DNA of 58,380 bases, the filler included, from Sphacelaria rigidula (Eukaryota), in the NCBI GenBank assembly GCA_964200075.2. It is 6 parts of 6 records of this genome, joined end to end, with 100 filler letters (N's around TTAATTAATTAA, not from the genome) between each part and the next. Parts side by side here need not be neighbours in the genome. Positions count along the whole stretch, not along the records: positions 19,497 to 29,143 come from CAXNAA020008041.1; 5 more parts are not named here. One strand, written 5' to 3'. Position numbers and translations under genes: made by a program. The notes beneath the pieces were generated by a model, which worked only from the letters and a program-made list of their open reading frames with translations, ran no database searches and was not told where the DNA came from. This document shows, piece by piece, positions 9,649-49,068 of the stretch (within the stretch, counting starts at the first letter, position 1; each line of letters opens with the position of its first letter).

Positions 9649-9748
9649 NNNNNNNNNNNNNNNNNNNNNNNNNNNNNNNNNNNNNNNNNNNNTTAATTAA
9701 TTAANNNNNNNNNNNNNNNNNNNNNNNNNNNNNNNNNNNNNNNNNNNN
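9649..9748. other. Artificial scaffold linker (44 N + TTAATTAATTAA + 44 N)
   Basis: Exactly 100 bp; palindromic core with stops in all six frames at 9693-9704; identical to four other linkers. Confidence 0.98.
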
Positions 9749-18205: not shown

Positions 18206-19056
18206 CCCTATCGCAGAATGACTCGACGCGTGTCTAGTATAGTGTGTGCCAGTTTTCGTTGCTGAACTCCCCCCCACCCACCTTCCCGGATCCAGTTGAT
18301 ATGACTTCCGTCATATGTGACCCACTCACAGCATACCTTCCAGTCCCGTTACGACTCTAGTCACTCCACGAACCCAGATCCACTACGTTGCTCTGACGCA
18401 CAAGCACTACCGCCGTGATTGTTTTGCACTCTTCTGTCCATCACCATCGACCAGCCCACAGCACACTACAGGTTCTGGCTGTGCCCTCCCCTTCACTACA
18501 TGCACGACGTCCCCTGCACCCAAGCCCGCGGCTGCACTGAAATCCAGCACCGCGACCGGGAAAATATGATGTTGACGTACGGCAAGGCACTTTGCTCGAT
18601 TTTTTTGTGGTAGAGCTAACCCTCAAACGGCGAGAGTAGGTCATCTGTTAAGTCGGCATCACCTTCACTTGAAAACGTATGCATGATCCAGATGGACTAC
18701 CCTCCTCGCGCTCGAAATATTGAAAGTTGACCTGTGCGTCAGAAGCCAAGTCAACGCGGCGGACGGAGAACTGCCCGCGCAGGGGAAATAGGCAAACCTG
18801 ACCCTCCCCCCCCCCGTCAGCCTGGTCCGGCGAAAAACTCGTGTGCTCCGTTCCGGCTTTGTAGGGACGGACCCCCTATGGGGTTGGCGTCGGTTGGCAA
18901 TGACGCTGTAAAACACGCCACTCACTGCGTAAGCTAGGCAACCAGGTTGGGGTGTGTTTTTACGCGCTTGCGTTTTTCTCGCGTTAGCCATATGATGGTC
19001 GTCGAGCTAGATCATATTGTGCGGCGTCGGAGAACCTCAATTCAATTTCTCACAAA

Positions 19057-19396
19057 GGGAATGATCACGTTGCGTAGTATGGAAATGGTGAGATACCCAT
19101 GAGGCAGTGTGAAACTGTGGCTGTCTCTGAAAGGAGCGATACCAAAAAATGAAGAGACTTATCCGAGGCTTCGGGCCGAACAATCTTGGCAGGATGCAGC
19201 TCACCCTTCACGCGACTCGCCCAACATATCACGGCGCTTGGCGCTTGGTGATTGATTGCGGGCCTGGTCCGGTGACAACCCGGCGGGCTCCGTCCTGGCT
19301 TTGTAGGGATGCGAGGTCAATGGTCATATGACTACGGCAAGCAAGATCGTGAATACCCCCCCCCCCCCCCCCCCCCCTCCCCCCCCCCCCCCTCCC
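19057..19396 (+). mobile_element. Poly(C)-tailed retroposon copy (subfamily A), ending in a long C tract at the scaffold end
   Basis: Homologous to 1729-2011 and 27690-28022; C tract at 19355-19396. Confidence 0.75.
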
Positions 19397-19496
19397 NNNN
19401 NNNNNNNNNNNNNNNNNNNNNNNNNNNNNNNNNNNNNNNNTTAATTAATTAANNNNNNNNNNNNNNNNNNNNNNNNNNNNNNNNNNNNNNNNNNNN
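19397..19496. other. Artificial scaffold linker
   Basis: 44N-TTAATTAATTAA(19441-19452)-44N. Confidence 0.98.
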
Positions 19497-20662
19497 CGGC
19501 GAGCGGGCAGGTAGAGCTGGTTGGGGGGGGGGCGGGGGCGAGGGGGGGGGCAGTGCGTCCCCGAAAATATTCTCTCGACAGACCGTCGTCATGACGCAGG
19601 CTTTTGTGAAACCAAAATATTCCTAGCATCAGAGCACAAGTTGCCGTAGTTGTGTACGGTACAGTCATAAGGGGCCGTTTTAACGAGACAAAAAGTGAGA
19701 ACACGTGAGAGTGCGAGTGGTTCTGGCGGCTTCGGTATTTTTCTCTTTGCTCTGTCCTCCCGATTGGTTGGGCGCTGGAGGCGAGAGCTGGTGGTCAACC
19801 AAGTGGAAGGGTACAAAACAAAGTATAACCAAAACCACCAGAATCACTCTTACTCTCATGGCGCGTTCTTACTTCTATTGTCTCGTTAAAATACGGTCTA
19901 ACAGCGTGGTTCAGGGTGGGTGCCAAAATGTATTCCCCACTAGATGCAGAGCGCAGAACTGGCCGGATAGAAAACATGTTTGGTATCATGATGACCCCCA
20001 CGAGAAAGCAAACGATGCCGCGTGAGCTGGAATTCTTGTACCGCATGTTATTCGACTGAAGAGAGTTTCGCGTCTTGACTGCTGCAGGAGGCTTATTCGA
20101 AGATATGATCGAGGAGCTAAGGTCGCGATACGTTGCCTTGAACGACAAAGTGACAACCTAGGACCAGGGGTAGGGTTTGGTTCTTGATCCGTCGCAGGGT
20201 GGACTATCTAGGTCTTACGTTCCATTTTATTGTTGATGGATCCTGGTGACCCAACAGATGATGCACCCAGCGTTGAATCATGGCGGTTTCGGTCGAAGTG
20301 TACACGCCACTGCAGAGGGATACTTTGGCACCATACTCATCACCGATAGCTACACTAAAGTCAATGGGAGCATTAAGGTTCAAAAGGGATAAGAGTGGAC
20401 TCTGCGAGGAAAAATGAACGCTCATGTTTGCATCACCTTCCTATAGCATGCAGTATTTGTACTCGCATCTTGGGGTATACGTCGCCGATTCCTCCTGATG
20501 GTGCACCCGTGGAGAACTGGAATCGGGTAAGACTCGTCGCTCGCTGTTTGCTCGTGTCGTCAGGATACGGCTGCCAAGCGTTTCCCTCTACTACAAGCGG
20601 GGTGCGCACACCACGCCGCAGCGCCGCGTTCTTCACCGCAGCCGGAGCGAGAACACGGGTTC

Positions 20663-23600
20663 ATGGTAACTCATCCCCCGTGTGCACTTCGTGTTCTTAA
20701 TCGCTCGTAACCACCCCTGTACAGAACTCGCATTACCGTAAGCTCACTATACTCCCCCGTCTGTCACCTTCATGTTTCGCCCACGTCGCTTGCCTCCGCG
20801 ACCTATTTGGCGCAGCTGCCCCCCCAACGCGGAATTGTGGTCAACCTCGTCGTGGATAGCGCAGACAAAGTCGTCGAGAGCCTGGGCAAAGTTTTTGGGG
20901 CACGAGAGTACTTCCGCAGTCCTGACAGCAACGGCAAGATCATGCACCTCGCTCTGGACATGGGTGGCGTGTCTATGTTCGTCGTGGAAGTTGGTCATAG
21001 CATGTACAAGGGAGCGGAGAAGGTAAAGCTCTAATATTTCGTCGCGGGTTGACGCCTGTTGTGGCCTTTGGAAGATCATCGCGGGGAGCGAAAATCTCGA
21101 CAATTGTGATTGATCCCTCGCCCGGTACAGGCCGGTTCACGTTTCCGATCCAAGAGTCATTCATCTGCATATAATGGCCAGGCCGATCCTTGAGTTAGAC
21201 TCTAAACATTTGCATAAATAATATGGAGGATTTCCAAACTTTAAGGAACAGGGTTCTGTGTTTCTTCGCGTTTTTCGCTTCTTTTGGGAAAGACCTAGGA
21301 TCCTGGGGGGTACCGTGCCGTAATGGCTTGTACAGATTATGCTGCTACCCCCGCTTAATTTGCTATTATGGTATAGAAAAGTTCGGTACAAAGATTTCCA
21401 TTTTTGGACGCTCGAAAACCGGCGAAAAACAAACATGAAAATTCTTCGAAGTTTGTAAACCGCCTCGTAGTATATGTGTGCATTTTTTCGGAGTCTAACG
21501 CCCAAAATCCGGTAAGATGTTTCGGCTTTTTTGCGACATTGTGTTGGTATCGAAACAACTTTGTTCGGGTATTTTTGACGTTGAAGCGACCCCCTTGTAT
21601 CTGGTTTTTTAGCCACGCAACGACAATTCGTACAGATTTCCCTCTGTCTACCCTGGGACGAGTATCTCTCTTATTTCTATATATCTTCAGGCATTCTGTA
21701 CAGGCTTCTGCCGGCCCCCGGATAAATCAGACTGTACCTGGGTGTTATTCGCCTTCGCGATATTTTGGAGTTGTTGGTCGCAACTCCCTGTCAATCCAGT
21801 GCGGACCTTCAACAATAGATTCTCGGAAATGCGGTTAAAACAATATGAGGTTCAACTCAAAAGCCGTGCTTTCCCTGACCTAAGTTCATGACAAATGACT
21901 TTCATATGGACAACCCCTTCACTCCCGACCTGCCCAAAACTACTACGGAGGGTTTTTAGCCTTCCGTTTCCCCAAAGGGCATGTACGAAAGCACGATTTT
22001 CGGGCGAAAAAGTCCTTTTTTCACCCCGAAGTCGAGGCAAAAGGATGCTTTCGCACAAAACCTTTGGGAGAACGGAAGGCTAAAACCCCCCGGAAATATT
22101 TGATGGAGGTCGGGAGGGATGAGATCGTCTGTGTGGAAGTCATTTGTAATGAATTTAGGTCAGGGAAAGCACGACTTTTGAGTTGAACCTGATTTTTTTT
22201 CAACCCCATTTGCGAGAATCCACTGTCATTTCAACATTTGGCATGTATTGCGAGGATTTTGTCTCTGAGCGCCCACGAGTGGACTGTTCACTTGCCAATT
22301 ATTCATGTGGACATGATACCGATTCGACATACGTGCACCCGTTGCCGTTGATTCATGGGCTGCGGGTTGCCAGGGGCACGACTGATATTTCACGAGGGTC
22401 TTGGTCAATTGGGGGTTAGGATTGCTGTATTGTGTAGACGCGCGCACACAATGACAGGTACTGTCACACAAGTACTCTGCGCCTGCGAAAAGGTTTTATT
22501 GTAGTCGAAGTTTTTCGGATCGCATGGGAGCGTTCGATCACGGGGTGTTGCAGTGAGATTTTCGTTTGAGAAAAGGCATTGGAGCAACATGTCCCGTGTT
22601 GCTGGACCAATTTCGCGGTAGGAATTTTATACTTGCGTGCAGAATATCCTTGCACAATTTCGGCTACTCTCAAAATTGGGTGAAGTATAAACACTTTCTT
22701 TGTGACACCGATGTGCCCCGGTTGTCCAAGTGGTATAGGAGACTCTATTCGTGGAGATCGCGAGTTCGTATCCTGACTGCTGCTTTTTTTTCCTCGCGGA
22801 ATCTGGTTCCGTCACTGCATATCTTATGCAGTACATTTTTCTTCTTTTTTTACCAGCGGAGCGTGCATCTGCAGATTCGTCTCCAGTCCGTGGCGATATG
22901 CTTACACCGGACGAATTGGGGAAGCTGAAGAATTATTTGGGTGCCGGCGGTATGCACGTTTTTGGGCGGGCTCAGCTCGTATAACAGGAGCAAGCTGTTG
23001 CTCGCGGGAAGTGATTCTCGATCGTGGATGTCGCCTGGGGGACAGGAATTGCAGGGATCCAGGAATGTCAAAAAGTGCTACCCGTGCGCTCTTTTGTTTT
23101 CCGTAGCAGCCCCACTCCATTGTCATGCAAAGTCAGCAAAGAGGTATCTTCCATGATGAGGGTGTGTCATTCTGCGAGCACGAGAAATTCCCGCCTCTGA
23201 TCCTTTCGCCTTACGTGTCCATCTTATCCGGATCACCGGCGAATTAGGCGCACGCCCGTCTTCACTTGAACGTGGAAGATCCAATGAGCGTCGCAGAGAA
23301 GATGGTCAAGGCTGGCTGCAAGACCATCACCAAATGCGAGAAGCAGTTCTGGGGAAGCATGTACGTATATATTGATGAACTGATAAAGTAAGCTGATTGA
23401 TTAACGCGTTTCCGAGAAAAAAACGCATTACCGTCTACGCGGTCGCTTTGAGATTACCGAAGCAGACTGTCGAGTATCGTGCAAGTATTGCAAGGGCGGG
23501 TCGAGTAGAGTGTACTCAATAATCAGTATTTTCGAAGAGTCAATCTTTGAGTACTCAATTTTTGAGTAGAGTATTCGAGGCCGTACTCAATCTACCTAAA

Positions 23601-26600
23601 AATTGAGTAGAGTATTTGGGGTCATATTCAATCTATTTAAAAGTTGAGTAGAGTATTGAGGCCATACCCAAGTGATACTCTCTACACAAGTATTACTGAG
23701 AGTGCTTACTCAATGTTTGAGTAGAGTATTTGAAGTCGTACTCGATCTACTCAAAAATTGAGTAAAGTATTTGAGGCCGTAATCAACCTACTTAACGTTT
23801 GAGTATAGTGGTTGAGGCGGTCCTCCACCTACTCAAATTTTGAGTATAGTAAATACTCGGGTATTTTACTCGTGTACATACTCTACCCGACCTGCCCTTG
23901 AAGTATTGCTATGTTTCACCGCTTGAGTGAAATTCAGGTCGCGCCAAGTGCATACTTGTTGATGCTTACCTTGATCCAGGCCCAGCGCTGCGTGGTACAT
24001 GTCGAATAGTACTTCTGTGGTCAGTGTTGATGATCCATCCGTATACCCTTGCTGCCTGTGCCGTACAGTTGGTGCCTATATAGAAAGTCCGAGTATATGT
24101 CGGTCAATGATTGCTCCAACCGAGCATCCAACATCTGGTGGGGGGTTATGGTAGGCTGCTCACGACTTGCTTCGCAGCGAATTTGACAAGGTGTACGGGA
24201 TTTACCGTAACTGTTAGAGCTCGGGGACAGTATCAGTATTGACTGTCCATTATCATTATAATGGAAATGATGGTAAAGGTTAAATGAAAAAAATTGGATA
24301 ATGGCTTCAAACCATTATTTACCGTTACCGGTTACCTGTGCTCCATAGAGCCCTTAAAAATTGGCCCAAATTAAACGATTTTTTGAGCTCTCACGAAGCC
24401 AAATCACGTGAAAACGTACCTCCGGCACGGCGCCTCCAGCGGGGCCCTCTGTGGGTGCCTCTGGTGGGGTGTCCTCTGTCGGAGGAGGATTTTTTGGCTC
24501 GCGGCTACGCCACTCGACGACCGAACCATTATGTACCATTTAACTGGTTAATGGTTAAGATATACCATTTCCGAGCTCTATAAACAATCTATCACCACAG
24601 CGGTTGTCCGTTGACAACGAAAATGTCTGGTAATCATTTTAAACTTCTTCTCGTCGATGTGGGCTTGGGGTTTGATTTTCATTTGCGCCACTGTACGCGT
24701 AACCATTCAACTGGTTAGTGGTTAGACACACCATTTCCGAGCTCGAGTAACCACGTATCACGACAGCGGTTGTCCGTTGACAACGAGAATGTTTGGTAGT
24801 CATTTTGGGTCCGTCTCTCGTCGATGTGAGCTTGGGGTTTGATTTTCATTTGCGAAATCCGCCTTGTATAGTAACAACCTCAAAATTTCGAACGACAGAC
24901 GTCGAATTCCACTCAACAACCGCCTTGATCCATCGCTGGTACCGTGTCGGGCGATTACGTCAAAGCCTCTCCGCATACGGGGCGGTGGTATAGTGCTCCA
25001 GGGCTTGTCCTGAAAAACGTATTTTGTGGTGTTGACACATATATGTGGTGAAAAGTTCCAATAGGCCTATACATTATGCAGTACATTTCTTGTCTATCGC
25101 AACTCTAACCAAAACGATTCGCAGGGTGTGGAACAATGTACTGTAAACAGAAACACTGAATATTCCTGTCCTACCACATCGAGACGAAAAATTATCTACA
25201 CGGCTGACTGGATCTACTCAACTCACTTTGTAGGGTCGCAATCTGAACTTCTCCGTAAGGATCTCATGCATTAGCTGAAGTGTGGATACCTCTACTCTCG
25301 AACCGATGCATTCACGTCCCTACATGCATACCAGCTACGGCGAGTTCGAGGATCCCTTCGGCTTGGTCTGGAGCGTTTCGGACACCACCACGCCGATCGA
25401 GGACGTTCCCAAAGAGCTGCAGAGCAAGCTGATGCCCTTTGCCATGGTGCATAATGCGACCGAGTATATCAAGTTCTTGCAGGACGTGCTCGATGCCACG
25501 CCTACTATGGAGCCCGTGAAGCAGTCCAACGGCAAGGTGAGTTCTTGACAGATCGGCTGATACCAGGCCCCTCTCGTATTTGCCTTTCACTATCCCCCTA
25601 TTTTGTTGACACATGAGGACGCATATATTTCAGCATTTTGGGCGAACGTATTGTAGAGTGAGTCTACGGAAAGGTGAACTTTTAACTCGATTTTTTTCTG
25701 GGGCTGCACACTACGGCCCAGATGATTGTCATCGAGAGGTTCTCGAAGTGAAGAACCTCAGGAAAAATTGTGCACCCCTACCGGACAAGCGCTCAGTAGG
25801 GAAGCGGAGGAAACGGCGCGAACGCTGCGGCCTCGGCACGTTTTTGATCCTGTAAAGTGCGCTTTTTGTTTTTTTCGAACCAGAGACTGTTGCCTGCCTC
25901 ACTCGCAGCAGACGACGGGAGCAGAATCGTCGAAGACGTTGGAAGGTGTTCTTCACAAGACAAGCCAAGCGGCCATCACATGGAACAAAACATACACTGT
26001 GGCGGCAGAAATATAGTATACCCCGGGACACGGTTACGGTGTAATGATCGCCAGCACGTTGCACATCACCCCCTCGAAAACACGGCGGATCGAGGTCTTC
26101 GACTATTCCTTGCAACTAAGCGAGTACCTGCAACACTTCATCACTTTTAGTCATACCTTTCAGTTCCTGCAACTCGTCACGCGGGAGAAATATATTCGCC
26201 GCGAGGTGCAGTACACACAAAAGTTAATGTATTAATAATGCAAAACTTACACCACGCACAAGCTACCCTTACCGACGATGAGGTGCGTCGTGCGTGCTAC
26301 GTACGAGGGTGGGGTATCCACGCTCACTTTCGACCTATACGCCAAGGCTCATGTTGCATACCCGTGATTTCTCTCTCCGAAAAAATATCACGTTAATTAT
26401 GCTGTGGGCCTGATCCAACCCCGTCTTTCTTGAATCCTAATTGCTTAATCAGATTATGTGGGCGGAGCTTATGATCAACGGCGGCAAGTGTGCCGTGAGC
26501 GACCAATGCTGTGACGAGGCCAATTGGACGATGACCATCACCACCACAGTTCCCACTGGACAAGCACAGTCCGTATGCGACGCTTTCAAGGCCGGTGGCG

Positions 26601-28980
26601 GCAAGATTCTCGACCGGCCATCGCCCCAGTTCTGGGGCCAAGGTACGGTTTGCCTGTTGATACCTAACCCATTCGCCAGGAAGAACCACGATCCTACAGA
26701 AACCGGTGCTGATGCTGTAGGGTTGAGTACGAGCTTCTGTACGGCCCAGGACGACGGGCTCATCTATTGGCCCGGTGAATATTTTGACACATGGGACATA
26801 TCGTGACGTGACTGAAACAACCAATCAAAGAAGACACTCGAATCTGCTGGCCCAAAAACACAAAATATGTGACCGCGGACTCAGGAAAGCCAAAACGCAT
26901 ACTGAGAATAAGTAATTTTCAGACTGATCATGATCCGTCCGACGTGTGGAATATTTTGGGCGACGGGTCAGATGTGAAGGGGTGAGTCTCGGCTCGTCAT
27001 GCGTCATGGCAGCGGTCTGGTTCTGCTTGGGAAGCCCTCATGCTTAGGTCGTCGTCGCCGCCGTCTGTGGTTTTCTGATCGATGTGTTGCCGCCGCAACA
27101 GATTGAGATTTGGTCTTGTACACTGTGCCTGTATGTCTTCTTCGCGTTGGCTTGACGCTGCTCGTCCTGCCAGCGTGTGCATCGGCACCTGCACCATGAT
27201 CGTTGGGCAGAGAGTGGTGGGCCATGACCTATGCAGAAGCATCAACGATGCCCTTCGGAGAGTGAACATAATTGCCGAGTAATTACGTTTGTCAGCATTT
27301 CATATAATGTTGTACTACCGTCTGGGTGCAGATACCCCACTACCTGGTCACCAACCCAACCTCATGGTCTACAACCCCGGAAAATTCCTTCGGAATATTC
27401 GCCGGTTGAGGCGCATAATCTTCATCGCCAAGTACTCAGATTTCGAGCTCAGGCTGATCTCTGAGCTTGAAATACAATACACCAATATACCACGATGAAT
27501 TTAATCATTTTGACTCGATATTTGTTTTTGCATGCATGTTGCCACACACACCCCCCTTCCTCCCCCCCCATCCCCCATTTTTCTACACGCTTGCGTATTT
27601 TTTGCGGTAACGATGACGGTCGAGGTAGATCATGTTGTGCGGGGTGGGAGAACCTTATTTCCGCGCGAACGGAGACGATTGTGGTAGGTAGTGTTAACAT
27701 GATGAGACACCCATGAAGCAGTGTGGAACCCATGGCTTGTCTCTGGATTTGGTGATACCAGAAAATGTAACCACTCATCGCAGGCCGTCATTCAAACGCA
27801 AGATAATCAGTACGCTCCAGGCCGAACAATCTTGGCAGGATACAGCTCACCCTTCGTGCGACCGGTTGTACACATCACGGTGCTTCGCGCTTGGTGATCG
27901 ATTGCGAGCCCGGTCGGGCGAGAGGCCGGCGTGCTCCGTCCCGGCTATATAGGGGTGCGAGGTCAACGGTCATATGATTACGGCATGCATGCAAGATCAT
28001 GAGTACACCCTCCCCCCCCCGCCACGCCGCTTCGTTCGCGCCGCGTACTCTAGTGTGGGGCAGGTGCAAGGATGCGTTCGGGCAGGACTGGGGAGTGTGC
28101 GAGCCACCCTCTGGACCTCCCCCAAGCAAGGAGGACATGGCAATCGATATACAGTTTGGCGAGAAATATCAGTGGCAGTGGTCCTGGGTGATTGAAGATG
28201 TGCCCAAGATGTACTGCTTCGGGCAGGTAGGAGAAAATCGGTGCAGCAGCGTTATCATTCTGTTCGGGGGTGAGGGTTGGGGGTTGGATAGCAGTAAATG
28301 ACCCCTGTGTCGTAAAGTGATTTGGGGGTGAAGCTCATAAGGGCATGAGGTTTGATGAGCACAGTATAATAGTCTAGGAATCTCGCGACCTCAAGCTCAT
28401 GAACGCTTGCCAACGGAAACAAACAACTGACTAGAATCGGAAGCATACCCAGCTATTAGCAAGATTTGCTGTACTCTCCTCCATCCTAGATCTTCCTCGC
28501 CCCCCTATCCTCGAACAAACTATAATATCGATTCAGGTGCGTACATCCTTGACAGAGGGATCGGAAATCTCGGCCGCCTGTGCCGAAATGATCCCTGTGG
28601 CTTCCGCAGAGGCAGGAAAGAGGGGTCTCCAGAGCGTGGGCCCGCCCATTTGTGGCTATTTCGCGTGGGACCCCAAAGAAGGCGGTGAAACGAAGCTGAC
28701 GGTTGGCGTCAACGTCGCCGGGGACTCTTCTCACGTGGAGGCGGCAGAGGGGGACGATGGGTTTGGCATCCGCTCCTTGGGTGGGGTGAAGTGCGCCACC
28801 GTGACCCATGTAGGCCCGTACAGCGAGCTCAAAGGTGTCTATAACGCCACGTTCGAGTGGATCGCCGCTAGAGGGTACGAGAGCAAGATGCCGGTGGTTG
28901 AAATTCATGAGGATGGACCTCCGGATGTTGAACCCGCCAATTTCAGGACTAAGATCTGTGTTCCGATTGTCCGCAAGTAG
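20663..28980 (+). CDS. Tandem PhnB-like VOC (glyoxalase/bleomycin-resistance fold) x2 + GyrI-like small-molecule-binding domain fusion protein (~443 aa)
   Basis: Exons (20663-20665 ATG, tentative), 20816-21022, 23248-23360, 25335-25536, 26453-26642, 28054-28226, 28537-28980. All introns are GT-AG with compatible phases (0,0,2,0,1,0) and there is no internal stop. VOC1: NLVVDSADKVVESLGKVFGA..NGKIMHLAL..LHLNVED..QFWGSIYGEFEDPFGLVWSV. VOC2: LMPFAMVHNATEYIKFLQDVLDA..NGKIMWAEL..QFWGQVWGRCKDAFGQDW. GyrI: GPPICGY..CATVTHVGPYSELKGVYNATFEWIAARGY..VVEIH..TKICVPI. Confidence 0.85.
20816..21022 (+). CDS. VOC-VOC-GyrI gene exon (VOC1 N-half)
   Basis: gcag|CTG...GAGAAG|gtaaag; LPPQRGIVVNLVVDSADKVVESLGKVFGAREYFRSPDSNGKIMHLALDMGGVSMFVVE. 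Confidence 0.85.
21848..22190. mobile_element. Foldback MITE in an intron (long inverted arms)
   Basis: AGGTTCAACTCAAAAGCCGTGCTTTCCCTGACCTAA... pairs with ...TTAGGTCAGGGAAAGCACGACTTTTGAGTTGAACCT; imperfect arms of ~150 bp; no clear target-site duplication (TSD). Confidence 0.8.
22715..22782 (+). repeat. Degenerate tRNA-like/SINE head
   Basis: A-box-like TGTCCAAGTGGT and B-box-like GAGTTCGTATCC, but no intact cloverleaf. Confidence 0.4.
23248..23360 (+). CDS. VOC-VOC-GyrI gene exon (VOC1 C-half); not in the ORF track
   Basis: ttag|GCG...AGCAT|gtacgt; AHARLHLNVEDPMSVAEKMVKAGCKTITKCEKQFWGS. Confidence 0.85.
23491..23900. mobile_element. hAT-type MITE
   Basis: TIRs CAAGGGCGGGTCGAGTAGAGT / ACTCTACCCGACCTGCCCTTG; perfect 8-bp TSD AAGTATTG (23483-23490, 23901-23908); internal TTGAGTAGAGTATT repeats. 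Confidence 0.9.
24215..24580. mobile_element. hAT-like MITE
   Basis: TIRs TAGAGCTCGG / CCGAGCTCTA; the right end plus flank is tandemly duplicated (24535-24688 vs 24702-24855). Confidence 0.6.
25335..25536 (+). CDS. VOC-VOC-GyrI gene exon (end of VOC1, start of VOC2)
   Basis: ccag|CTAC...GGCAAG|gtgagt; YGEFEDPFGLVWSVSD..LMPFAMVHNATEYIKFLQDVLDATPTMEPVKQSNGK. Confidence 0.87.
26453..26642 (+). CDS. VOC-VOC-GyrI gene exon (VOC2 core)
   Basis: tcag|ATT...CAAG|gtacgg; IMWAELMINGGKCAVSD..CDAFKAGGGKILDRPSPQFWGQ. Confidence 0.85.
27690..28022 (+). mobile_element. Poly(C)-tailed retroposon copy (subfamily A) in an intron
   Basis: Homologous to 1729-2011 and 19057-19396; ends CATGAGTACACCCTCCCCCCCC. 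Confidence 0.75.
28054..28226 (+). CDS. VOC-VOC-GyrI gene exon (end of VOC2, linker, start of GyrI)
   Basis: ctag|TG...GGGCAG|gtagga; VWGRCKDAFGQDWGVCEPPSGPPPSKED..WVIEDVPKMYCFGQ. Confidence 0.82.
28537..28980 (+). CDS. VOC-VOC-GyrI gene last exon (GyrI-like domain)
   Basis: tcag|GTG...TAG; 147 codons with GyrI/AraC effector-binding motifs THVGPYSEL, YNATFEWI, VVEIHED, TKICVPI. Confidence 0.88.
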   Translation: MRTSLTEGSEISAACAEMIPVASAEAGKRGLQSVGPPICGYFAWDPKEGGETKLTVGVNVAGDSSHVEAAEGDDGFGIRSLGGVKCATVTHVGPYSELKGVYNATFEWIAARGYESKMPVVEIHEDGPPDVEPANFRTKICVPIVRK

Positions 28981-29143
28981 GTGAACTGAAGGGCATTCAT
29001 GCCCCATTACGTGATTCTTCGCCACCGGCTTGGGTTGGGCGGCTGTTCGCCGGAGGTCGGGAGAAGAGGGTGGGGGCGTGTTCTTATGATCTTGCATGCC
29101 ATAGTCATGAGATAGTTGACATCAGGGGGGGGGGGGGGGGGGT

Positions 29144-29243
29144 NNNNNNNNNNNNNNNNNNNNNNNNNNNNNNNNNNNNNNNNNNNNTTAATTAATTAAN
29201 NNNNNNNNNNNNNNNNNNNNNNNNNNNNNNNNNNNNNNNNNNN
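29144..29243. other. Artificial scaffold linker
   Basis: 44N-TTAATTAATTAA(29188-29199)-44N. Confidence 0.98.
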
Positions 29244-29284: not shown

Positions 29285-30195
29285 TTGTTCGACAAGACTG
29301 ACCCCATGGTTGTACACGAATCGACTGATGCGCCTGACACAAACCCTCTGACTGCCTTACTAGATACATTCTCGCCAGAGCAACGTGTTAGTTTTCAACG
29401 ATTATGGGATGAAATTCCCCCCCATTTGAGACACATTGCGTTTGATTTATCTGGTGAGGATTGGACACCCACGGTGATTGATCGGTTGCGCTCCATCTTG
29501 ATATGATACTCTGAACGGTTTTCCAAATCGTCAGCAGATTTAGGCCGCTGCAACACTACACCGTTCACAATCAACATTCCTGATGGTACGACACCTATCG
29601 CCATGCGTCCATACCGTACAAGCCCTCTTCTAGCGGGTAAAATTCAAGTAATCCTCGACGAATACTTGTCCGCCGGGTTAATATGGCACTCAACGTCTCC
29701 GTGGGCCTCGCCGTTGGTAGTCGTTCGGAAGAAGAATGGTAAGATCCGACTGACCGTCAATTATCAACGATTGAACGCAGTCATCCAAATCGCACGTCTA
29801 CCTCTTCCCCGGATAGATGAGATCACCGACTCCCTCGGCGGGGGCAAAGTTATTTTTCGAACTTCGACATGCAGTCCGGTTACCACCAACTGGTGATGGA
29901 TCCGCACTCTATCGAGCTGACAACGTTTTGCACCCCGTCAGGTCTATATGGGTGGCTGGTCACTCCACAAGGTGCCGCCGGCGCGCCAGGAGCGTTTCAA
30001 CGTGTGATGTTTCGCGTCATTGATGGATTGTCCAAATACCGCATGTACCTCAACGATGCGGTGGTTCACAGCAGTGCACGTGCTGAGTATGTCGAACAGT
30101 TGGCGTCCTTCTTTGCTCGTTTTGAACAACACAATTTGAAGCTCGCCCCATCCAAATCCCGCATTGGAGCCACGCGCATCGGGTTCCTAGGCCAT
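29285..30195 (+). pseudogene. Gypsy reverse transcriptase (disrupted)
   Basis: RPYRTS..SPWASPLVVVRKKNGKIRLTVNYQRLN, SGYHQL, PQGAAGAPGAFQRVM, YLND (YxDD mutated, 30046-30057), KLAPSKS..FLGH; stop at 29504-29506 and frameshift near 29855; connection and RNase H domains missing. Confidence 0.9.
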
Positions 30196-30829
30196 TCTCA
30201 CTCAACGGCACCCCGGCACTTCTTGAAAATAAGCTTACGCCTTCGGCTCACGCTTTTGTATTGGGCAGTTTGGCCCCACGATCGTTGTGTTCACTTGGAG
30301 ATGAAGTTCGTGCAACTACCGGCGGGTATGATCAATTTCGTGCGTATGATCATCGGATGGTTTGCACTGTAAAGCCGGTTTCTACTGACTGCGTCCTCCC
30401 GGTTCAAGTCCGAGACCTTATCTCGAGCCGGACCCGAGGACGCCGGGCCGCAGAAACGGCTGCCGCCCTGGCAGCAGCCGGCCCAGGCCTCCCCATCCCC
30501 AACCCCAACCCCATTCCAGTACCCGATGGCCTCCTTGCGCCCCCGTTCCCTCCACGGCGCAAAGCTCCCAGACAATCGACACCTTCCAAACCACCTCTGC
30601 CGACCATAGTCGAGACCTCGACTGTGCCTTCCCCACCCCCTGATGGTACCACCTCCGGTACCACACCATCCGACACCCTCCATAACGTAGGAATAAAGGT
30701 GAAGGTTCCGTTTGAGAATACACTGACCACCCTTTCTGCCCTTGATCCAAAAAACGCCTCGTGTCCACCCCACAGCGATTCGATCCCCTGCGGTTTGGAC
30801 AACCCCTCTGACACTGTATTCAAGGAACT

Positions 30830-38889: not shown

Positions 38890-38989
38890 NNNNNNNNNNN
38901 NNNNNNNNNNNNNNNNNNNNNNNNNNNNNNNNNTTAATTAATTAANNNNNNNNNNNNNNNNNNNNNNNNNNNNNNNNNNNNNNNNNNNN
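38890..38989. other. Artificial scaffold linker
   Basis: 44N-TTAATTAATTAA(38934-38945)-44N. Confidence 0.98.
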
Positions 38990-48635: not shown

Positions 48636-48735
48636 NNNNNNNNNNNNNNNNNNNNNNNNNNNNNNNNNNNNNNNNNNNNTTAATTAATTAANNNNNNNNN
48701 NNNNNNNNNNNNNNNNNNNNNNNNNNNNNNNNNNN
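48636..48735. other. Artificial scaffold linker
   Basis: 44N-TTAATTAATTAA(48680-48691)-44N. Confidence 0.98.
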
Positions 48736-49068
48736 TGCCATGGTCATAGGACCATTGGCTCAGCATCCCTACGAAGCCGGGACGGAGCAAGCCGGGTCTT
48801 CGCCGGACGGGGGGGGGGGGGGGAACCTATTGGCGCCTTCTCTATGTATTCCGCGGAACAACTTACGCTGGGCATGAAAGGAAACCGTCCCCCCGGGTTG
48901 AGATATACAGGATTTTCTGTCTCCGTTTCTCCCGTTCAACCGAGAAATCACCGCAAGATGTCTGTGGGGAGAGGCGGGGAAGGGGGGGTGTCCTCATAAT
49001 TCCCCATGCCGTAGTCATAAGACCATTAGCCTTGCATCCCTACAAAGCCGGAACGAAGCACGCCGGGG
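48736..49068 (-). repeat. Two truncated copies of the poly(C)-tailed retroposon (subfamily A)
   Basis: 48736-48810 and 48985-49068 reverse-complement to GCTCCGTCCCGGCTT.GTAGGGATGC..AATGGTC.TATGAC.A.GGCA, flanked by G tracts. Confidence 0.7.

Follow-up and report, generated by a model that had tools for sequence, protein, structure and literature searches.

What does a brown alga do with a single protein that carries two PhnB-like VOC units and a GyrI-like domain, and how did it come by such a gene? The question is raised by a locus at positions 20663-28980 of the window, by which we mean the whole 58,380-nt stretch of DNA from Sphacelaria rigidula (a brown alga of the Sphacelariales) that was analysed. 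This stretch was put together from six blocks, each about 9.65 kb long, and each join between blocks (9649-9748, 19397-19496, 29144-29243, 38890-38989 and 48636-48735) consists of 44 N, TTAATTAATTAA (12 nt) and another 44 N. The whole finding is contained in block 19497-29143; since the blocks are possibly non-adjacent in the genome, sequence outside this block is no guide to the gene neighborhood. An earlier sequence-only reading had seen here an intron-containing eukaryotic gene of probably bacterial origin, encoding a VOC-VOC-GyrI protein that might soak up toxins. As shown below, the gene and its architecture hold up, the bacterial origin gains no support, and the proposed function is plausible.

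Gene structure and expression

Exons were chosen as open segments of the plus strand that encode VOC-like or GyrI-like peptide and that can be joined at frame-keeping AG/GT sites. There are six of them. Exon A (20816-21022; AG acceptor at 20814-20815, GT donor at 21023) encodes the N-terminal half of VOC unit 1, and exon B (23248-23360) encodes the second half of this unit, up to an FWG motif. Exon C (25335-25536) runs from the last part of VOC unit 1 through a short linker into VOC unit 2, whose middle portion, as far as its own FWG motif, is on exon D (26453-26642, also found by tblastn with orthologues). Exon E (28054-28226) completes VOC unit 2, continues with a conserved, helix-containing linker and adds the first strand of the GyrI-like domain. 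Most of this domain is encoded by exon F (28537-28977), which the stop codon follows at 28978-28980. Together the six exons encode 442 amino acids and a stop, free of internal stops, and the five introns (2225, 1974, 916, 1411 and 310 nt; phases 0, 2, 0, 1 and 0) are all of the GT..AG type. Three orthologue proteins searched by tblastn match the six exons and nowhere else in the window. Exon B gives only a weak Pfam Glyoxalase match by itself (E-value 0.021), and it is missing from the track of open reading frames (ORFs) because its open frame, 47 amino acids, is below the usual cut-off of 60.

The transcript evidence comes from four runs of one study (X1-X4), whose RNA status was guessed and was judged from the spliced contigs. 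In every one of the four runs, all five joints are found in one long spliced contig (1553, 2019, 1727 and 1438 nt, respectively), and the shorter side of each joint is covered by 115-190 letters. The VOC and GyrI exons share single contigs and are thus on one mRNA, not in separate genes, and the compatible phases predicted for the six exons are borne out by an uninterrupted frame. Exon B is likewise real, with joints 21022/23248 and 23360/25335 present in all four runs. Of the words sampled from the 8.8-kb stretch, 12-21% are present in X1-X4, close to the share taken up by exons. So small a share, together with contigs that lack the introns and have GT..AG boundaries, is as expected of a transcriptome, although a processed DNA copy could formally be the source of the intron-less joined form. 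The locus is a nuclear, spliced and expressed brown-algal gene. Contig depth, for its part, is unable to rank expression. On the 3' side, the untranslated region extends over 28981-29140 (plus strand; the contigs reach 29104-29140) and continues past the block end at 29143, with about 360 further letters past the examined stretch in one contig.

We note that the X4 spliced contig differs from the window over 25391-29085 by 13 single-letter differences and one 1-nt deletion, while the X1 and X3 contigs are near-exact. Some of the X4 differences are also seen in the 3' untranslated region of the X2 contig, and they are likely allelic or strain variation within the same species.

The 5' end and the public gene model

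Exon A is the first exon within the window, not the first exon of the gene. The contigs leave the genome at acceptor 20816 and extend 162-273 nt further upstream; the final 16 letters of this upstream part are absent from the entire window (allowing up to 2 mismatches), and its last 30 letters are open in frame. The window therefore lacks one or more 5' exons of the gene, whose product must exceed 443 amino acids. The size of about 443 amino acids proposed from sequence holds for what the six exons encode (442 amino acids without a stop), but it is not the full length, as the open frame continues upstream. A micro-exon at 20663-20665 (plus strand), tentatively proposed to supply the ATG, was rejected: the contigs diverge upstream of 20816, bypass 20663 and do not land anywhere on 20300-20815.

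Using the last exon as a query, we were able to find a public record of the protein, a 400-amino-acid NCBI 'unnamed protein product' of Sphacelaria rigidula (P0001). P0001 is exactly the last 400 residues of the 442-residue translation and begins at an internal Met (20942). The 42 exon A residues that it omits (20816-20941) align to residues 20-61 of the Ectocarpus orthologue P0002; the upstream exon, known from the transcripts alone, is missing from it too. Our analysis corrects this public gene model, in which the annotated protein is short by at least 52 N-terminal residues, belonging to VOC unit 1 and its leader. In the Ectocarpus orthologues, the point equivalent to 20816 is preceded by about 20-30 hydrophilic residues, and from these N-termini, which contain no signal-like stretch, we infer a cytosolic location.

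The VOC units

P0001 scores 43.3 bits against Pfam Glyoxalase (PF00903; cut-off 20.6) in two stretches, and the orthologues behave likewise, in agreement with the VOC assignment made from sequence. The boundaries of the two units in P0001 are 1-93 and 94-217. With a hidden Markov model (HMM) of 134 positions, built from 13 single-domain metagenome VOC ORFs, two complete units were identified in every full-length member of the family, each covering about 120 of the 134 positions, so each unit corresponds to one whole bacterial-size VOC protein. The paired beta-alpha-beta-beta-beta modules that define the VOC fold are present.

To place the units among characterised proteins, a profile (A4) of eight VOC-VOC relatives (30-38% identity; the window's own protein excluded) was used. 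It matches the PhnB structures 5kef (E-value 1.8e-11), 3oms (3.4e-8) and 1u6l (3.7e-9), TioX (3itw, 7e-11), and also 3l20 and plant At5g48480. The nearest ESM Atlas clusters of one relative (P0013) are described as 'PhnB, glyoxalase superfamily' (score 0.92, a lead only). P0001 itself gives weak phmmer matches (1xy7, 0.084; 1u6l, 0.71). Taken together, these matches support 'PhnB-like' in a loose sense.

The PhnB/YjdN-like proteins (5kef, 3oms, 1u6l, 3l20) and plant At5g48480 (1xy7), which the A4 profile matches at 1.8e-11 to 1.1e-5, likewise have a unit of about 130 amino acids and the C-terminal motif FWG..G...D..G..W. They are single units that form homodimers, whereas the algal protein has two diverged, fused units and a third domain. 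We know of no established function for the PhnB-like proteins. TioX (3itw) and the bleomycin- and mitomycin-binding VOC proteins have the VOC fold in common with the algal units and offer a mechanistic model for a 'sponge': according to the available text of PMC4052310, TioX captures thiocoraline in the manner of the bleomycin-resistance protein BlmA. TioX is a tetramer encoded in the gene cluster of an antibiotic producer, whereas the algal gene has no known link to a biosynthetic cluster.

The GyrI-like domain

Exon F alone scores 71.7 bits (E-value 1e-19) against Pfam GyrI-like (PF06445; cut-off 26), and residues 258-397 of P0001 score 65.2 bits, so the GyrI assignment made from sequence is also confirmed by the profile. 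The duplicated beta-alpha-beta-beta (SHS2) fold is present together with the buried glutamate (E253 in BmrR, E185 in Lin2189), and the Glu aligned to this conserved residue is invariant in 8/8 rows of the full-length alignment A2. A profile of the algal GyrI domain (A5) matches the CTR107 family at 1e-31 to 3e-33, followed at about 1e-15 by CtaZ-like 7zhd/7zhe, EcmrR and 7r3w; Lin2189 is matched in its C-terminal half only (5.5e-7). CTR107 is a multidrug-binding protein that was co-crystallised with rhodamine 6G and has a Kd of 5.2 uM for TMR (PMC12814168, in its available part). CTR107 (5kax, 3e0h, 2kcu; Rho-tag 9rtm/9rtl) and SAV2435 are stand-alone proteins with about 20-30% identity to the algal domain; CTR107 is bacterial and has 158 amino acids. 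In the algal protein, unlike in these, the GyrI domain is tied covalently to a VOC pair by a conserved linker.

Predicted fold

The AlphaFold2 model was made for the complete Ectocarpus orthologue P0002, which is 49% identical to the window protein, from an alignment of 44 rows (mean pLDDT 93.2, pTM 0.85). In this model the two VOC units pack like known single-chain two-domain VOC proteins, which, with two whole units of the 134-position type, agrees with the pseudodimer postulated by the sequence-only reading. A linker helix (residues 284-296) lies N-terminal to the GyrI domain, and the linker residues are near-invariant in alignment A1. As far as the model can tell, the two units are paired in the classical single-chain VOC manner, and the third domain is a pocket domain of the CTR107 type. 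Rv0577 (3oxh) and the other single-chain two-domain VOC proteins share only 11-14% identity with the VOC pair and have no GyrI domain.

Distribution of the architecture

The VOC-VOC-GyrI architecture is also found in Ectocarpus siliculosus, Ectocarpus sp. 6, Ectocarpus sp. 12 and Scytosiphon promiscuus, at 47-49% identity, which answers the question of whether other brown algae have it. An exhaustive search of representative sequences gave 817 matches with E-value <= 1e-3, eight of them with E-value <= 1e-30. When the family profile was run over 158 proteins, ten covered VOC-VOC-GyrI: the five named brown-algal proteins and P0007, P0008, P0017, P0020 and P0037. P0008, P0017, P0020 and P0037 are the more distant full-length members; P0017 comes from a EukProt transcriptome and has about 25-30% identity. 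As a separate observation, many proteins of 400-880 amino acids (P0011, P0012, P0014, P0016, P0036, P0039 and others) consist of 3-6 tandem PhnB-like VOC units.

The gene and its architecture are already in the databases and visible in public annotation: the records of the brown-algal orthologues come with precomputed matches to both Pfam domains, and the Ectocarpus siliculosus record is a 'glyoxalase family protein' of 471 amino acids. The suggestion that the architecture had not been described thus stands for the literature, where no paper on VOC-VOC-GyrI was found (the search covered papers but not their supplements), but not for public records; one diatom paper lists GyrI-like and glyoxalase genes, as separate genes only. 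Start codon aside, the earlier observation is sound, in that an intron-containing VOC-VOC-GyrI gene of an alga, supported by spliced contigs and both Pfam domains, is real, expressed and conserved.

Origin of the gene

That the gene was 'probably horizontally acquired', as first proposed, gains no support from four tests, which covered prokaryote species genomes, metagenome loci, the genomes of one bacterial phylum and a tree of VOC units. In prokaryote genomes (one for each of 185,579 species), the search for a close relative of P0001 gave 4 pattern matches, none of them confirmed; a second protein, P0074, has one distant locus (27% identity) in the same set. A metagenome scan with the family alignment gave 60 VOC loci, and no GyrI domain lies in the flanking sequence retrieved for any of them. 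Nearly all of these loci have a single VOC unit in a short bacterial-type ORF, the exceptions being L010, whose ORF spans most of two VOC units, and L031, which holds two adjacent units. The 401 genomes examined represent the phylum of one bacterial match, the sole bacterial phylum sampled; 75 of them have matches, each to the GyrI part or to one VOC unit, and no joint VOC and GyrI match is among the matches listed for them, nor was one found at the 13 loci that were scanned (L062-L074).

The tree of VOC units contains 205 units over 135 columns and was inferred by a quick method, leaving out units with fewer than 100 HMM positions or E-value > 1e-5. All 17 family units fall in a clade of 52 rows (SH-aLRT 94), whose remainder includes 14 units of two-VOC proteins, 6 of single-unit matches (several of them family fragments) and 15 of the multi-VOC proteins mentioned above, some of whose units thus share a clade with the algal ones; none of the 52 bacteria-like metagenome ORFs is in this clade. 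Within this clade, first and second units group separately, each together with VOC-VOC proteins that have no GyrI domain (supports 70 and 72), which places the duplication before the origin of the family. Introns 2 and 4 (23360/23361 and 26642/26643) split the homologous codon of units 1 and 2, the second residue after FWG, in phases 2 and 1, respectively. This shared codon hints that the duplicated gene was already intron-bearing, or it may be a coincidence. In the GyrI tree (55 rows; matches covering fewer than 110 of 158 positions left out), a brown-alga-like core clade holds 7 members and 4 fragments (SH-aLRT 98), and three distant members are on long unresolved branches; one clade for all 14 rows is not rejected (p-AU 0.75), with a log-likelihood 11.75 above that of the free quick search. 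Both trees are unrooted, and most of their rows carry no taxon label.

The sharing of the architecture with Ectocarpus, Scytosiphon and the EukProt protein points to long vertical descent within eukaryotes. The gene would have been inherited vertically within brown algae, and its VOC tandem would have arisen by duplication before the family diversified. The alternative, that the gene or a fused VOC-GyrI cassette came from bacteria by horizontal transfer and gained its introns later, concerns origin and not function, and we regard it as distinctly improbable. Bacteria are rich in both single-unit PhnB-like VOCs and GyrI-like proteins of the CTR107 type, and the closest solved relatives of the GyrI domain are bacterial. 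There is also a bacterial ESM Atlas cluster (about 315 amino acids, 64 members, 98% with Glyoxalase and GyrI-like) that has the same two Pfam families on one chain; its size fits a single VOC unit plus GyrI, and its homology to the algal fusion is a lead only (score 0.86). Set against these points are the failure of all 4 prokaryote pattern matches, the 60 metagenome loci and 401 genomes with no match spanning both parts, the VOC clade with no metagenome ORF, and the shared intron codon with its hint of duplication in an intron-bearing gene. The authors of PMC5684135, in the part of their text available, regard GyrI-like proteins, found in prokaryotes and eukaryotes, as seemingly conserved rather than transferred, which also speaks against a transfer. 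A recent bacterial transfer is unlikely; an ancient one may have occurred, and a eukaryotic origin is not proven.

What the protein may do

We favor the reading that the protein is cytosolic and binds or sequesters small molecules in two pockets, with a probability of roughly 0.55. The two PhnB-type VOC units, fused head to tail, would pack within one chain as VOC units usually do in a dimer, giving a cleft between paired beta-alpha-beta-beta-beta modules as in VOC binding proteins. The conserved linker would join this pair to a GyrI-like domain of the CTR107 type, a stand-alone multidrug binder in bacteria whose pocket, formed around the buried glutamate, accommodates planar cationic dyes. 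One chain would thereby carry two different pockets and would use them, with little or no catalysis, to capture small molecules of a planar or hydrophobic kind in the cytosol; xenobiotics, microbial metabolites and the alga's own reactive aromatics are candidate ligands. Direct support extends to the gene structure and its expression, to the identity of the domains, to their fold and packing as predicted, and to the conservation in brown algae. The characterised relatives closest in sequence (TioX and CTR107) are binders, and a defence or sponge function is plausible.

Several observations weigh against this reading. Ligand binding and a protective role are inferred for every member of the family. 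The window protein scores 15.9 bits (E-value 0.013) against the NCBIfam YjdN/PhnB equivalog NF007537, whose cut-off is 122; it is not a YjdN equivalog and is, at most, distantly PhnB-like. In the GyrI domain, the second residue past the conserved Glu is His in Sphacelaria but Tyr in Ectocarpus and in the profile. The predicted model is of an orthologue rather than of the Sphacelaria protein and uses an alignment of limited depth, and as the first Sphacelaria exon lies outside the window, a targeting signal may be present in this species. Finally, real enzymes (extradiol dioxygenases, HPPD, AbxF) are among the structures most similar to the VOC pair, and the fold by itself therefore cannot tell a binder from an enzyme.

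The protein could accordingly be an enzyme and not a sponge, with the VOC pair acting as a metal-dependent or acid-base catalyst of the isomerase, cyclase or dioxygenase type (as in AbxF, glyoxalase I and the extradiol dioxygenases), or with the GyrI domain hydrolysing a reactive toxin, as the cyclopropanoid cyclopropyl hydrolases do, while the other domain delivers or holds the substrate. We consider these two variants, even jointly, unlikely. The enzymes among the single-chain VOC matches use a His/His/Glu metal site, whereas the eight full-length rows of A2 have no invariant His and no invariant Glu within the VOC units (judged by conservation in this alignment); the sole invariant Glu outside the GyrI domain follows VOC unit 2. 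This speaks, though not decisively, against a metal enzyme, and so do the sequence-level relatives, which are PhnB, TioX and At5g48480-type proteins, not dioxygenases. As for hydrolysis, the cyclopropanoid cyclopropyl hydrolases (YtkR7, Lin2189; 3b49, 5x5m) share with the algal domain the GyrI-like fold and the Glu equivalent to E185, and the available text of PMC5684135 assigns to Lin2189 the acids E157 and E185 and an aromatic cage of Y46, W85, W99, F154 and Y187. By offset mapping to Lin2189, which is an estimate and not a residue-level alignment, E185 falls on the conserved Glu, and E157, the second hydrolase acid, falls on a non-acidic Pro or Tyr of the HVGPY stretch in both the profile and the window protein. 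With the half-length Lin2189 match at 5.5e-7, against 1e-33 for the CTR107 binders, we lean against membership in these hydrolases. A role in endogenous metabolism, in which the protein would carry or buffer reactive aromatics of the alga itself (such as phenolic or halogenated compounds) or would sense a ligand, seems to us quite unlikely. Conservation of 47-49% between Sphacelariales and Ectocarpales with a near-invariant linker suggests a housekeeping role, and the presence of a spliced contig in 4/4 runs fits this as well, yet the closest characterised relatives (TioX, CTR107, CtaZ-like 7zhd/7zhe and EcmrR) deal with toxic or foreign compounds, and the link from any pathway to the algal protein is conjectural.

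The favored reading of a two-pocket binder can be extended to a three-domain 'toxin sponge' that was assembled within eukaryotes: a PhnB-type duplication in an intron-bearing ancestor and a single fusion to a CTR107-type GyrI domain, with the product persisting in brown algae and in certain other eukaryotes, where it would serve in the cytosol as a defence against planar microbial metabolites. This extended proposal is tentative, and as a whole it is doubtful.

Repeats and other features of the locus

Two introns contain repeats. Intron 1 has an inverted repeat at 21812-22226 (unstranded; a self-match with arms of 164 nt, 76% complementary and 87 nt apart) with high contig depth, which is probably a small transposable element of the MITE (miniature inverted-repeat transposable element) kind, outside the coding gene. 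Intron 4 has a dispersed repeat at 27580-28023 (unstranded), ending 30 nt 5' of exon E, with copies at 18957-19373, 1747-2011 and 48736-48812 (71-79% identical). Because of this repeat, contig depth in intron 4 is very high, in the thousands, with many loose ends at 27981-28010 (runs X1-X4); it is probably an abundant transcribed repeat family. Intron 2 has direct repeats of two small families, at 23552-23850 and 24558-24806 (a 103-nt unit present three times and an 83-nt unit present twice, respectively). No Rfam matches were found in block 19497-29143, and an antisense ORF at 28486-29121, which matches no Pfam family, is regarded as a by-product of coding on the opposite strand. In the next block, an open frame at 29821-30372 (plus strand) with a reverse-transcriptase domain (RVT_1, E-value 5.7e-19) is a retroelement fragment.

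Implications

Both domains are known and their fusion is visible in databases, and no new mechanism or principle is indicated. If the toxin-sponge proposal is true, the protein would be a eukaryotic counterpart of the bacterial antibiotic-sequestration proteins and a compact natural scaffold for two ligand classes. If the binding role is true, brown algae would have a dedicated protein for soaking up small molecules, made from two bacterial antibiotic self-resistance modules; this would bear on how seaweeds cope with dense bacterial biofilms, and would give a testable function to the large and uncharacterised group of PhnB-like VOC proteins.

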